Below are positions 50,381-58,898 of a stretch of DNA of 64,000 nucleotides, piece after piece. Each line of letters begins with the position of its first letter. The first letter of the stretch is position 1. The position numbers and the translations under genes were made by a program. The notes under the pieces are model-generated. The model made no database searches, had not been told where the DNA came from, and saw only the letters and a list, made by a program, of their open reading frames with translations. The DNA comes from a virus (taxonomy: Duplodnaviria; Caudoviricetes), in IMG/VR virus record IMGVR_UViG_2509276065_000002, positions 1 to 64,000 of that record; one strand, written 5' to 3'.

Positions 50381-50863
50381 TTACCGCTTCAGGTAAATCA
50401 GGATTGGCCTGACTCCAGAGGCCGGTCGGTAAAACGACGCGCTCGCGGTATCCACCCGGCCATTGGTGAAGGCCAGCGTGAAGTAGGATCTGGCCGCGAC
50501 GTTCGGAATGGTGCAGCGCCACCAGCCCGGCACCGGCAACGGTTGCCCGTTCGATTCCTCTGTGACGGCCGTGCACAGCTTCGCGGCTCCGGCGTCCGGG
50601 GTGAGTCCCGCGCTTCCCACCACCAGCACACCCGGTCCATCCTGCGGATCGGTCGGATCACCCGTGACCGGCGCGTCCGACGGGTTCGTGAGGGTCACCG
50701 CGTCCACCGCCGCGCAGAAGCCCTCAGCGGTCGGACATTTCAGCGCGGGCAGCAGTTGCGCGCTTTCCTCCTGCACCCGTTCGAGCCCCCGCGACAGCGC
50801 CTGCCGGGGCGCACACGACACGAGCGGTATTACCAGCAACGTCAACATCCACAGCCGCTTCAT
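50381..50863 (-). CDS. Lipoprotein at the end of the lysis cassette (spanin-like candidate)
   Basis: LVSC lipobox; four further Cys; position. Confidence 0.65.
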   Translation of the reverse strand: MKRLWMLTLLVIPLVSCAPRQALSRGLERVQEESAQLLPALKCPTAEGFCAAVDAVTLTNPSDAPVTGDPTDPQDGPGVLVVGSAGLTPDAGAAKLCTAVTEESNGQPLPVPGWWRCTIPNVAARSYFTLAFTNGRVDTASASFYRPASGVRPILIYLKR

Positions 50864-51060
50864 AGTCCACGCTCCCGCAAGGCACGCTCCAGGCGGACCT
50901 GCAGATCCAGGCGGGTGTCGGCGTTGAGGTACGCGCTGCCCTCGAAGAGGTCGTCGAGGACCTGGCCGGCCGCTTCGGTCGCGCCGTCCGGTACGCGGTC
51001 CGCCTGGCCGAAGCGTTGCAGCAGCAGGTCCAGCACCATCTTCAGGAGTTGCGCTCTCAT
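50860..51060 (-). CDS. Small hypothetical protein
   Basis: ATGA-coupled at both ends. Confidence 0.6.
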   Translation of the reverse strand: MRAQLLKMVLDLLLQRFGQADRVPDGATEAAGQVLDDLFEGSAYLNADTRLDLQVRLERALRERGL

Positions 51061-51557
51061 ATCCTCCCTCGTCCTGTTTTCGGCGTGGGCGTGTCCACTG
51101 ACCGGATGGGTTCCGCAGCCTCCACCCCGCTTTTGGTGGACTGCTGCAGCTTTACGTAATCACCGAGTCCCTTCAGGACCGCCGTGACGAACGCGATGCC
51201 AGCCGCCGTCCAGCCTTCGACGCCTTGCCCAAACGCGCCGGTGGCAAGGCCGAAAATGGCGGTGATGAGCGTGACGAGGAGGATGTACACGACGCGGGTC
51301 ACGGTGCCATGCGTAGCGCCGTACCGCTTCACGAGCGCCGTGATGGGTGACGCGATCTCCTTGACGAGCCAACCCACCGCAGCGGAAATCAGCGCCCAGA
51401 GCTCCGGGGGAATGCTGTACTTCCCAACGACCACCATGCCGTCCTGCGCGAGTACGAACGGCACGAACAGCATCAGCAGCAACGCGAAACCGAACGTCAG
51501 CAGGAAATGCAGGCGCAGTGCACTGAAGCACCGCAGGGCCATCACAAAACTGTTCAT
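51057..51557 (-). CDS. Multi-TM holin-like protein
   Basis: About four hydrophobic segments; GGAGG RBS. Confidence 0.65.
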   Translation of the reverse strand: MNSFVMALRCFSALRLHFLLTFGFALLLMLFVPFVLAQDGMVVVGKYSIPPELWALISAAVGWLVKEIASPITALVKRYGATHGTVTRVVYILLVTLITAIFGLATGAFGQGVEGWTAAGIAFVTAVLKGLGDYVKLQQSTKSGVEAAEPIRSVDTPTPKTGRGRI

Positions 51558-56241: not shown

Positions 56242-56426
56242 ACGTCCTCCTAGAGGGCGGTGGCGGGCAGCACCCGGTAGGTGGTGTCCACGATGATGAC
56301 GGAGCGGTCGAAGACCTGCAGCCGGTACCTCGCCCCATACCTCGTGGCAGGCAGCGCTTGCGGCTCCCCACCGTCCTGAGCAGTCGTCTTGGCCGTCTTG
56401 GATTCCTTTCGTGCCCATCGGGCGGG

Positions 56427-58898
56427 TCACGGTCGTTCGTACGGTCCTCGGTCGACCGTGCCGGCCGGCACGGGATTCCCGGCGAGGTCTTGCGCGATGG
56501 TGACGGTTTCGGTGCCGCCACTGCTGTTGATGACTCGCGAGAAGGACAGCGGCACGCTGGAGCCGTTGTTCAGCGCTTTCGCGGCAGTGGATTTGAGGTT
56601 GAAGTTGAAGTTCAGCGGATCGACGAACAGCGACGCCATGTCGGCGTTGCTCAGGCGGCTGTCCCCGGTGCCGCTGAGGTTGGTGGTGTTGCCGGTCAGG
56701 CCCGTGCCGGTGGTGATGATGTTCCCCGAGGAGTCCAGGCTGAGACGCCCGACGAGGTTGTGGCTGGTCGCGGGCGTGACGTCCGCCCAGAATTCACTTT
56801 TCTGTCCTTTCCCGCCGCACGGCGCGGTGCGGGTGTAGATGCGGCAGCCGTACCCGTCGTTGAGGCGCGCGGTGTGCCAGCCGATCAGGATGTTGTTGCG
56901 GAATTCCAGCACGTCATCCTCGCAGGTGTCCGAGCAGCTCACGCCCACCTGCGTGCCGTACGCGACGTTGTTGAACGCTTTCGCGCCCGCCTGCCCACCG
57001 AACGAGCTGCCGCCCTTGTACCCACGCATCACCAGGAACTCCCCGGAGCCGGTGGCCAGGCCGCTGATGGGAGCGAAGGCGTTGTACGCCATCACGTTGT
57101 GCACCGACGTGCCGCCCATCTCGACGAAGGTGCCGCTGTTGATGCTGATGTTGTGGTGGTAGTACCCGTACGAGGACGAGAAGATCTCGATGTCCGCGCC
57201 TTCCTGCCCGTAATCCTCGCTGCAGGGCACGTTGTTCTCCGCGAAGAGACTCCAGCCGACCTCGTTGTTGTTCGAGCGGGGATTCACGCCGAACCCACCG
57301 GAGTCATCGTCGTACTTGCTGGTGCTGGGACTGTTGGACTTGTTGTTGAAGTTCACGTCCCCATCCGGGTTGTACCCGCCGTACAGCGAGTCGTACACGT
57401 TGCCGTCCCCGTCTCGGTCGACGTTCTCGTACAGCGCCGGGGTGTTGGTGCTGGCGAGGTCGTTGTGGTGGACGTAGCTGTGCAGCAGCCGGTGGTATCC
57501 TCCGCCCGCCATGTACACGCCTGCCGTGGCGCGGGACGCTTCGACGTACTGCAAGGTGTTGCGCGCGCCGGTCAGGGTGAACCCGGTCTTCCAGCCGGTC
57601 GGGTTCTGGCAGCTGCGGATGTAGGTGTACCCGCTCGGGACGTAGTTGCTGGGCATCTGCCACGCGCCGGGCCGGCCGCTGTCCGCGATTCGTGCGCTGA
57701 CGTTGTCGAAGGTGACGTCCGAAGCGGCGCTGTTCACGGTGGCTTCGTTGGCGCTGCCCAGGGCGCGGTTCTCGATGACCGGGTTGTTTCCGGCGATGAC
57801 CGGCCCGAGCCGGACGGGTCCGGTGGTGGGCGCGCCGTACGCGCCGATGACGACGTTGCTGCTGGTACTACCCGAATCGCCAGAGGCGAGCGTCAAGGGT
57901 CCCGCGTAGGCGTACCCACGCCGCAGGTACACGCCGTCTCCGGCATTGAGGTCGGCGTTGTTGACGGGCGTGAGGGTCCGCCAGGCAGTCGAGGGCGTGC
58001 GACCGTCGTTGCTGTCACTGCCCGCGCTGGCGTCCACGTAATACCGCTGGGTGGTGCCACCCGCGTTCGCGAGGCTCACCTGGTTGGTGTCCTCAGTTGT
58101 GGCGATATTGACGGTCAGAGCCACCGCCGCGCTGAGGGTGCTGTTGCCCGCCGCGTCGTACGCCCGGGCAGTGTAACTGTACGAGCCGTTCTGGGTGCTG
58201 CTGGTGAAAGACGCGTCATGCTCGTACGGCGCGAAGTTCTCGGTGTGCACCAAGCTGCCGTCCCGGTAGAACTCTACTTTCTGCACTCCGATGTTGTCGG
58301 TCGCCGTGGCAGTCAGGCGGGTGGTGCTGGAGGTGGTGATGCTGGTGCTGGCCGCCGCGAGGCTCACGACGGGCGCCAGCACGTCACCGGTCTGCAAGTT
58401 GGTGCCGCTCGCGGTGAACAGCTTGACTTCCCGGATGCCGATCAGGGCGGGGCCCTTGTTGGGATCGACGAGTTTGTGGATGATGATGCGCACGTAGCGT
58501 GCGTCGGTGCGTGCGAACGTGTAGCGGGTGAGTTGTTCGCTCGCGGTGGATTCGATGTTGCGCAGCACTTTCGTCCAGCTGCTGCGGTCGCTGGAGACTT
58601 CCACGTCGAAGGTGTAGGTGCGGCCCAGCGCGCCCCACAAGCCCAGCCAGATGCCGTCGAGGGGCCGCACGGCTTTGGTGTCCATCACGACTTCCTGCGG
58701 CAGACCACGGGCGTACCAGACGGTGCTCTCGTTGTTGTCGGTCATGTTCCCGGCGGGGAAACCGAAGGTGGGCCTGAGGATGCCGGGCGCTTCCAGCGGG
58801 ATGGGGTCAACGGCGAGCGCGGCCCCCGCCAGGAGGGCCGCGCCGAGTGTCAGATGCCAGGTCAGGCGAAACCCGGCCTGCGAAAAAAAGCGTTTCAC
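56427..58898 (-). CDS. Secreted discoidin + Ig-like + beta-helix protein
   Basis: Signal peptide; DARYVRI; ATATDNIGVQKVEFY...ARAYDAAGNS; YYVDASAGSDSNDG; paralog of the 51962 gene. Confidence 0.85.
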   Translation of the reverse strand: MKRFFSQAGFRLTWHLTLGAALLAGAALAVDPIPLEAPGILRPTFGFPAGNMTDNNESTVWYARGLPQEVVMDTKAVRPLDGIWLGLWGALGRTYTFDVEVSSDRSSWTKVLRNIESTASEQLTRYTFARTDARYVRIIIHKLVDPNKGPALIGIREVKLFTASGTNLQTGDVLAPVVSLAAASTSITTSSTTRLTATATDNIGVQKVEFYRDGSLVHTENFAPYEHDASFTSSTQNGSYSYTARAYDAAGNSTLSAAVALTVNIATTEDTNQVSLANAGGTTQRYYVDASAGSDSNDGRTPSTAWRTLTPVNNADLNAGDGVYLRRGYAYAGPLTLASGDSGSTSSNVVIGAYGAPTTGPVRLGPVIAGNNPVIENRALGSANEATVNSAASDVTFDNVSARIADSGRPGAWQMPSNYVPSGYTYIRSCQNPTGWKTGFTLTGARNTLQYVEASRATAGVYMAGGGYHRLLHSYVHHNDLASTNTPALYENVDRDGDGNVYDSLYGGYNPDGDVNFNNKSNSPSTSKYDDDSGGFGVNPRSNNNEVGWSLFAENNVPCSEDYGQEGADIEIFSSSYGYYHHNISINSGTFVEMGGTSVHNVMAYNAFAPISGLATGSGEFLVMRGYKGGSSFGGQAGAKAFNNVAYGTQVGVSCSDTCEDDVLEFRNNILIGWHTARLNDGYGCRIYTRTAPCGGKGQKSEFWADVTPATSHNLVGRLSLDSSGNIITTGTGLTGNTTNLSGTGDSRLSNADMASLFVDPLNFNFNLKSTAAKALNNGSSVPLSFSRVINSSGGTETVTIAQDLAGNPVPAGTVDRGPYERP

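Follow-up and report, generated by a model that had tools for sequence, protein, structure and literature searches.

The 64,000-nucleotide stretch of viral DNA analyzed here (IMG/VR record IMGVR_UViG_2509276065_000002, hereafter the window) corresponds to C1:1452027-1516026 of the host genome G000, and positions 50345-58916 of the window are confirmed as a real, expanded lysis region of an integrated prophage, termed prophage A. Coordinates are window positions unless prefixed by G000, C1, C2 or an L-numbered contig. The interpretation favored here, which we hold with about as much confidence as doubt, is that the late lysis region of prophage A consists of a chassis conserved among the Deinococcaceae and three intercalated enzyme genes, namely bh1 and bh2, which encode beta-helix proteins with signal peptides, and a gene for a papain-family cysteine peptidase (C1 peptidase). 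The bh1 and C1 peptidase genes are inserted between the tail-fibre gene and the holin-like genes, and bh2 is inserted between the endolysin gene and a terminal trio of genes. As far as their sequences indicate, the three extra enzymes are plausible helpers for breaking the layered envelope of the host.

All ten genes of the region are located on the minus strand, are intact and show a strong coding signal, with a GC content at third codon positions (GC3) of 0.79-0.89. The original prediction had described an enlarged lysis cassette; each gene that it listed is present with the domains named, and the region is indeed a lysis region larger than the norm for related prophages. As in phage lysis cassettes, hydrolase and small membrane-protein genes follow the tail genes on the same strand, in a prophage with an integrase and attachment (att) sites.

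Three small membrane-protein genes directly precede the endolysin gene. The products are hol75 (55152-55379; 75 amino acids (aa); two transmembrane (TM) segments and a charged C-terminus by hydropathy), hol156 (54701-55171; 156 aa; N-terminal TM segments and a C-terminal coiled coil) and hol97 (54415-54708; 97 aa; three TM segments and a basic C-terminus). The genes overlap by 20 nt (hol75/hol156) and 8 nt (hol156/hol97), and hol97 overlaps by 4 nt the gene of a 211-aa Amidase_2 endolysin (53783-54418), an N-acetylmuramoyl-L-alanine amidase without a signal peptide. The amidase matches profile positions 3-131 of 131 of PF01510 (E-value 2.6e-34; 118.8 bits, with a cut-off of 26) and 21 PHROG families, 20 of which are annotated as endolysin or amidase. 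In the Deinococcaceae genome G003, a set of three membrane-protein genes directly follows a 398-aa fibre-like gene and lies upstream of a GH108 endolysin gene, with no protease or beta-helix gene between them, and the same set recurs in G049. The first and second G003 genes are homologous to hol75 (39% identity, E-value 2e-10) and hol156 in the same order, and no similarity is detectable between hol97 and the third. Homologs of hol156 are present upstream of endolysins in 4 of the 124 other genomes of the GTDB family to which the host belongs. The three genes that had been called holin-like are therefore a recurrent set. No Pfam, PHROG or NCBIfam model matches any of the four membrane proteins of the region at an E-value of 0.001 or below, where only unrelated sub-threshold matches (E-values up to 1) are obtained, and the three upstream proteins are classed as holin-like by size, predicted topology and position, not by family.

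Two side observations concern these genes. Between the peptidase stop codon and hol75, positions 55380-55440 of the minus strand contain GC-rich hairpins whose fold z of -1.1 relative to shuffled sequences is not significant; one hairpin arm, CUCCCC, is able to pair with the GGGGAG of the hol75 ribosome-binding site. Additionally, single-TM proteins with long coiled coils are encoded directly upstream of M15-type endolysins in two other prophages of the host genome, at L071:3027-3746 (prophage B) and L054:13475-13888 (prophage D); the latter protein has a weak DUF2730 match, and the build of both resembles the C-terminal coiled coil of hol156.

The region ends with a trio consisting of the membrane protein TM166 (51057-51554), which has an N-terminal signal or anchor and two or three TM segments, a small helical protein of 66 aa (50860-51060), whose gene overlaps both neighbors by 4 nt, and a 160-aa lipoprotein (50381-50863) with the lipobox LVSC, a candidate outer-membrane-acting component. 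For TM166, the start at 51641 was replaced by the ATG at 51554, which has a GGAGG ribosome-binding site. Homologs of TM166 occur in 15 of the 124 family genomes, often in multiple copies, and the genes within 1.5 kb of them include those of Amidase_2 (three), Peptidase_M15_4 (two) and GH19 (two) proteins; in prophage B, a TM166 paralog directly follows an M15/VanY-type endolysin. The small protein aligns with the C-termini of fused TM166-type proteins of 247-287 aa and with the products of stand-alone genes of 67-75 aa. The lipoprotein is 34-39% identical to lipoproteins encoded downstream of TM166 homologs, with an invariant Cys-Ala-Pro, an invariant Asn-Pro and two further invariant Cys residues, and its family is present, with as many as five copies per genome, in 21 of the 124 genomes. 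Since homologous trios follow several endolysin types in other Deinococcaceae prophages, the earlier assignment of these three genes to the lysis region is borne out.

With these comparisons, the baseline of the chassis is secure: a fibre gene, three membrane proteins, an endolysin of variable type, and then a membrane protein, a small protein and a lipoprotein. The trio is read as occupying the spanin slot in function, not as a spanin by family. The lipoprotein has the lipobox of an outer-membrane spanin (o-spanin) and is, at 143 aa in its mature form, too long and too folded for one, given that o-spanins are usually shorter than ~100 aa, rich in proline and unstructured. An inner-membrane spanin (i-spanin) has a single N-terminal TM segment and then a periplasmic coiled coil, whereas TM166 has a signal or anchor with two or three further hydrophobic segments and lacks a coiled coil. 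The structural model of the lipoprotein (predicted local distance difference test, pLDDT, 78) yields generic beta-sandwich matches, with a best Z of 8.6, and the beta-sandwich is confidently predicted over residues ~50-160. Neither the small protein nor the lipoprotein has a Pfam, PHROG or NCBIfam match. The nearest Atlas clusters of TM166 are viral hypothetical proteins, and the nearest Pfam-bearing cluster is Phage_holin_5_2, with a score of 0.76, which is a lead only.

The first of the intercalated genes, bh1 (56427-58898), encodes 823 aa with a signal peptide (ALA before the cleavage site, VD after it), an F5_F8_type_C (CBM32) domain (E-value 2e-9), a Big_7 domain (E-value 9e-13) and a right-handed beta-helix. 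The product of bh2 (51962-53725) has 587 aa, a signal peptide (ALA before the cleavage site, AP after it), an F5_F8_type_C (CBM32) domain (E-value 3e-12) and a Beta_helix match. The two proteins are paralogs (29% identity, E-value 4e-42). A bh1 start at 59015 was rejected, a choice that rested on the non-coding GC3 of the extension or on the overlap with the fibre gene. The AlphaFold model of bh2 has a pLDDT of 90.4, with residues 1-14 below 50, which is consistent with a signal peptide, and the N-terminal CBM32 domain is 35% identical to that of the alginate lyase AlyQ. The best fold matches are the PL9 lyases Pel9A (1RU4; Z 32.0, root-mean-square deviation (rmsd) 2.9, 346 residues aligned) and a rhamnogalacturonan lyase (5OLR; Z 30.9), followed at Z 24-30 by glycoside hydrolases, alginate epimerases, RbmB and tailspikes. 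Over 334-346 residues, the two PL9 lyases superimpose on bh2 with an rmsd of 2.7-2.9 at an identity of only 17-19%, and the fold is closest to PL9 by only 1-4 Z units over the helices of glycoside hydrolases, epimerases and tailspikes. A profile of the family is also similar to the GH136 lacto-N-biosidases (LnbX) (E-value 7e-28), mostly in the N-terminal cap, where ~85 residues carry the match and the C-terminal segments align weakly. Two acidic motifs of the bh2 family itself, DDDSG and SEDYG..EGA, are invariant. From its model, bh2 is predicted to be a carbohydrate-active enzyme, either a lyase or a hydrolase, and bh1 and bh2 are candidate exported glycanases.

The association of this family with endolysin genes is repeated within the host genome. 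Prophages C and D, which have tail genes in common with prophage A, also carry a member, and a CBM32/beta-helix gene thus follows the endolysin gene in three of the four prophages of the genome (A, C and D), in each case with a different endolysin type. In prophage C, the order is Phage_holin_4_1, GH108 endolysin and CBM32/beta-helix protein, with ATGA overlaps, and the beta-helix copy has a lipobox. In prophage D, a GDSL lipoprotein, a protein with four TM segments, a DUF2730 protein and an M15-like endolysin (45% identical to that of prophage B) precede the beta-helix gene. The endolysin and beta-helix genes overlap by ATGA in prophage C and are 9 nt apart in prophage D and 57 nt apart in prophage A. 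A quick LG+G4 tree was built from 30 rows, with two Streptomyces proteins as the root. In it, bh1, the prophage C copy, the prophage D copy (by its N-terminal part only) and one metagenomic protein group together (SH-aLRT 99) and are separated from the two host clades, and bh2 is a lone branch. The maintenance of a phage beta-helix lineage beside endolysins of different types points to a function linked with late expression.

Esterase genes were also observed in such regions. A GDSL/SGNH esterase lipoprotein (L054:11745-12998) is encoded directly upstream of the holin-like genes of prophage D, and 3 of 13 other Deinococcaceae cassettes surveyed contain SGNH/GDSL esterases in their late regions (two GDSL_2 proteins and one AlgX-like SGNH hydrolase). 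These enzymes of Deinococcaceae prophages could be LysB-like or could deacetylate receptors.

The third intercalated gene (55453-56241) encodes a xylellain-type papain-family (C1A) cysteine peptidase of 262 aa that matches Peptidase_C1 (PF00112; E-value 7e-17) and has no hydrophobic leader. It aligns over its whole length, including the N-terminal pro-segment, with xylellain (PDB 3OIS; E-value 3e-61), and the catalytic Cys (QGxxGSC), His (GGHAV) and Asn (NSWG) motifs are aligned with those of 3OIS. Tailed phages and giant viruses are known to have acquired xylellain-type peptidases, for which a function was not given (PMC10380794). A start at 56430 was rejected because the in-frame extension (56242-56430) has a non-coding GC3 of 0.54. 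The gene is instead preceded by a 185-nt spacer (56242-56426, minus strand) with an AGGAGG ribosome-binding site. Within this spacer, positions 56242-56330 of the minus strand hold ~25 codons with 100% GC3 in the bh1 frame past its stop, with no usable start; the stretch ends just short of the peptidase ribosome-binding site and looks like the C-terminal remnant of an earlier gene.

Of the 106 longer homologs of the C1 peptidase, 24 (39-48% identity to the query) are fused to peptidoglycan-directed domains. The fusion partners are GH25 (16 proteins, many of which also contain Lipase_3), Rv2525c-like domains (five proteins), SLT, GH24 and PG_binding_1, and in the fusions with GH25 or Rv2525c-like domains the identity is 42-48% over 93-98% of the query. 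Additionally, the annotated endolysin of Alicyclobacillus phage MMB025 combines C1-like, Rv2525c-like and PG_binding_1 domains. The C1-muramidase fusions and the MMB025 endolysin make a wall or envelope role credible for the leaderless copy encoded directly before the holin-like genes, and the C1 peptidase is a candidate second lytic enzyme on these comparisons. The fusions of xylellain-type C1 domains to muramidases further suggest an overlooked class of lysin domain. Among the metagenomic and metagenome-assembled-genome (MAG) proteins, P0058, P0064, P0070, P0073-P0076 and others (~735-1126 aa) contain Lipase_3, xylellain-type C1 and GH25 domains in one chain.

The envelope of the host provides the setting in which these enzymes may act. 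In deep-branching diderms, SLH-domain proteins take the place of Braun's lipoprotein as the tether of the outer membrane, with an S-layer and a carbohydrate coat outside, and phage escape from such bacteria is, to our knowledge, essentially unstudied. The host had been predicted to be a Deinococcus; this holds at the family level (Deinococcaceae) and not at the genus level, as the genome lies in a separate four-species genus of the 125-genome GTDB family, in which the largest genus has 111 species. The host encodes two SLH-domain proteins and a CsaB-like pyruvyl transferase. In D. radiodurans, the SLH domain of SlpA tethers the outer membrane to the wall (PMC9388160). The SLH proteins and the CsaB-like enzyme indicate that the host probably has an SLH-based outer-membrane tether as in D. 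radiodurans.

From the gene content, domains, folds, synteny and domain fusions described above, we infer the timing, substrates and contribution to release as follows. The three small membrane proteins would form a set of holins or holin regulators, translationally coupled to the cytoplasmic Amidase_2 endolysin. The CBM32/beta-helix glycanases would be exported by the Sec pathway during late expression and would thus already be present in the periplasm or envelope, where they may cut a host-specific envelope glycan, with the carbohydrate coat and a wall-linked polymer anchoring the SLH-tethered outer membrane as candidates. The C1 peptidase, with its xylellain-like pro-segment, would build up in the cytoplasm, pass the holin lesions together with the amidase and cleave peptide bonds of wall or envelope proteins, and the trio would act last, on the outer membrane. 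The suggestion in the original prediction of one enzyme class for each envelope layer is only partly supported; it is a fair hypothesis, not a finding.

The most serious competitor, which we consider possible and on balance doubtful, is that only the seven chassis genes are lytic and that bh1, bh2 and the C1 peptidase gene are morons that serve the lysogen or the phage outside lysis. The glycanases may then trim the surface polysaccharide of the cell itself (to block superinfection or re-adsorption, or in foraging), and the target of the protease may be unrelated. The following evidence favors this explanation and weighs against a lytic role of the three enzymes. Part of it lies in the layout of the region. 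Relative to the G003 and prophage B layouts, the enzyme genes are inserted exactly at junctions, and gaps and hairpins, the latter missed by the original prediction, set off each accessory gene. A weak-terminator-like hairpin with a U7 run (58891-58916; -13 kcal/mol, z -2.2) overlaps the GTG start of bh1; a second hairpin (53748-53767; -15.6 kcal/mol, z -3.8), followed by GCUGUUUU, lies between the amidase gene and bh2; and two precede the trio, one strong and terminator-like with a U5 run directly upstream of it (51648-51671; -18.7 kcal/mol, z -4.8) and the other at 51579-51600, all on the minus strand. A sigma-70-like promoter was sought on the minus strand, and none was found. The original prediction also missed a small plus-strand open reading frame (ORF) between bh2 and TM166 (51643-51936) that is convergent with bh2 and has a coding-like GC3. 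This layout looks like a moron-style insertion and, unless the late transcript is antiterminated, would break the region into separate units. It belongs to a family of ~85-aa proteins, whose other copies (41446-41712 and 45935-46207) are found in the cargo island of prophage A; the ORF is 18% and 34% identical to these two paralogs, and the alignment shows a common W..L..L..L..C.V pattern. Finally, the coding-like remnant that precedes the peptidase gene points to acquisition through recombination.

The distribution of the enzymes points in the same direction. A survey of related prophages, of the kind that had been proposed as a check, shows that the chassis recurs, and that neither the beta-helix nor the C1 enzyme type is present in the 13 other Deinococcaceae cassettes. 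The beta-helix family is mainly cellular. The host genome holds at least 15 copies, of which ~11 are stand-alone chromosomal genes and at least six of these have a lipoprotein signal; examples of host loci are C1:2457866-2460133, C1:3427912-3429675 and C2:461570-463333, and the copy at C1:2815632 adjoins two GT2-glycosyltransferase-like genes, which were recognized by eye only. The family is present in only 4 of the 124 other family genomes and in none of the three others of the same genus, and its 325 cellular relatives come from Deinococcales MAGs, Chloroflexi, Actinobacteria and one cyanobacterium. At the loci of the best 80 of these 325 relatives, tblastn with the lysis and tail proteins of prophages A-D detected no homolog. 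IMG/VR scans with a single beta-helix protein and with a profile found no relative, bh1 has only a 76-residue partial match in the phage database, and a scan of JGI metagenomes with the phage-clade alignment returned one weak match only. The C1 homologs on 11 IMG/VR contigs have DNA-metabolism neighbors (methylases, ligases, kinases and the like) and no lysis domains nearby, and no homolog of the cassette proteins was found near eight C1 loci in seven other Deinococcaceae genomes. Additionally, Sec export precedes holin triggering, and the glycanases, as inferred from their signal peptides, would not be holin-gated, unlike classical lysis enzymes. The prophage D beta-helix copy is frameshifted, and the folded beta-sandwich of ~110 residues in the lipoprotein of the trio is unlike known o-spanins.

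Several of the observations above nevertheless weigh against a moron role. Each of three prophages has the beta-helix gene after a different type of endolysin, and the phage copies belong to a separate, old clade and so are not recent captures. The decay of the prophage D copy does not fit a gene kept for the benefit of the lysogen, C1 domains of the same clade are repeatedly fused to muramidases, and the GC3 of the three enzyme genes (0.84-0.89) is the same as that of their neighbors. With the intercalation at junctions, the hairpins, the absence from 13 cassettes and the mainly cellular character of the beta-helix family, a moron or lysogenic-conversion role has an appreciable probability.

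It is improbable that prophage A is defective and that the extra genes are functionless hitch-hikers or decaying. Such a state would fit the frameshift in prophage D, the 14 kb of cargo in prophage A and a block of host-like genes inside that prophage, but all ten genes are intact with a strong coding signal and conserved catalytic motifs, and prophage A shows no interruption in its structural, lysis and integrase genes over 64 kb. Less probable still is that the beta-helix proteins are virion depolymerases (tailspikes or side fibres) used for adsorption and encoded at the end of the tail module, as might be suggested by the position of bh1 directly after the tail-fibre gene, by fold matches to the tailspikes of Det7 (listed as Dettilon; Z 28.1), Sf6 (Z 25.9) and CBA120 (TSP2; Z 24.5), and by the usual role of beta-helix depolymerases as tail proteins (PMC6116005). 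No tail-attachment domain is present at the N-terminus, which is a CBM32 domain, bh2 and the prophage C and D copies are located after the endolysin and outside the tail module, and the tail module of prophage C already contains a separate, leaderless beta-helix spike of 925 aa. Virions assemble in the cytoplasm, and the tailspike explanation was rejected on the signal peptides of bh1 and bh2, with the lipobox of the prophage C copy, and on the position after the endolysin.

A more specific form of the favored reading of chassis and lytic add-ons is put forward tentatively, and we regard it as rather unlikely to hold in full: the lysis system would have two undescribed elements, in which (i) CBM32/beta-helix glycanases of a phage-specific lineage, exported by the Sec pathway and co-expressed with the endolysin, would act beside a stand-alone C1 peptidase and cut an envelope glycan such as the wall-linked polymer or the carbohydrate coat, and (ii) the trio, conserved in Deinococcaceae prophages, would replace the spanins in breaching the outer membrane. 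The locus in any case offers a defined, testable gene set, composed of the conserved chassis, with a trio that lacks a family annotation, and three add-on enzymes.

The surroundings of the region are those of a temperate, siphovirus-like prophage integrated at tRNA-Arg(CCT). An att core repeat of 49-56 bp, identical to the 3' end of the tRNA-Arg(CCT) gene, is present in three copies, at C1:1448017-1448065, at C1:1487918-1487977 (window 35892-35951) and at C1:1566153-1566208 (or, as a wider span, C1:1566153-1566240), the last of which adjoins the intact tRNA-Arg(CCT) gene. The copies at window 35892-35951 and at C1:1566153 each lie directly downstream of a tyrosine-integrase gene; the three att copies and the two integrase genes therefore define two prophages in tandem, prophage B (~40 kb, reaching window 35951) and prophage A (~78 kb), whose integrases are 53% identical. 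On the minus strand, the genes of prophage A run from the integrase (C1:1564930) through replication, head and tail genes to the lysis region. The last gene of the tail module encodes a tail-fibre-like protein of 375 aa (58957-60084, minus strand) without a Pfam, PHROG or NCBIfam match, and it follows homologs of the tail genes t548 and t182 and the tape-measure ORF. The latter is very long, with ~2900 aa (window 62872-64000 and L003:3-7685), and the tape-measure ORFs of related prophages have 1448 and 2099 aa. The lysis region is closed by a strong intrinsic terminator (50345-50375, minus strand; 14-bp stem in the minimum-free-energy fold, U6 run; -27.7 kcal/mol, z -5.1). Between this terminator and the att site lies the ~14 kb of cargo (window 35951-50345), with products that include a histidine kinase, an OmpR-type response regulator, a SRAP peptidase, a DUF2726 protein and an Ig-like protein, among others. 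After the late ends of prophages C and D, genes for a 347-aa tyrosine recombinase are found (L053:4385-5428 and L054:17697-18740; Phage_integrase E-value 1.8e-21 for D); the two proteins are equal in length and identical in their first 30 residues.

Compared with known systems, the chassis resembles the lambda cassette (S, R and Rz/Rz1) in that small membrane proteins are coupled to a cytoplasmic endolysin and a membrane protein and a lipoprotein are encoded at the 3' end. It differs from lambda in having three upstream membrane proteins rather than a holin/antiholin pair from one gene, and in a downstream module of three parts, in which the membrane protein is polytopic and the lipoprotein is folded, whereas an Rz1-type protein is a short proline-rich peptide. 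The beta-helix proteins share the right-handed beta-helix (Z 25-28) and a likely surface-polysaccharide substrate with phage tailspikes and depolymerases (P22, Sf6, Det7 and the K5A lyase). The tailspikes, however, are leaderless virion parts encoded in the tail module, whereas the proteins described here have Sec or lipoprotein signals and N-terminal CBM32 domains and are encoded beside endolysins. Xylellain, the C1A peptidase of Xylella fastidiosa, is not phage-encoded, in contrast to the stand-alone C1 domain found here directly upstream of the holin-like genes, and we know of no established physiological role for xylellain. The closest parallel to the add-on enzymes is LysB of mycobacteriophages, which is encoded beside the holin and endolysin, attacks a host-specific outer layer and is dispensable for plaque formation and required for complete lysis (PMC6116005). 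The likeness, here proposed from the genes alone, is that of an extra enzyme beside the holin and endolysin that is directed against a host-specific envelope layer. LysB is a cutinase-like mycolyl-arabinogalactan esterase without a signal peptide, whereas the candidates here are CBM32/beta-helix proteins with Sec signals and a C1 peptidase. If the proposal is true, the glycanases and the C1 peptidase are the carbohydrate and protein counterpart of mycobacteriophage LysB; their action in lysis would mean that the LysB principle, an extra lysin fitted to an unusual envelope, also covers glycanases and papain-type peptidases, and would make such loci a source of enzymes that dismantle Deinococcus-type envelopes.

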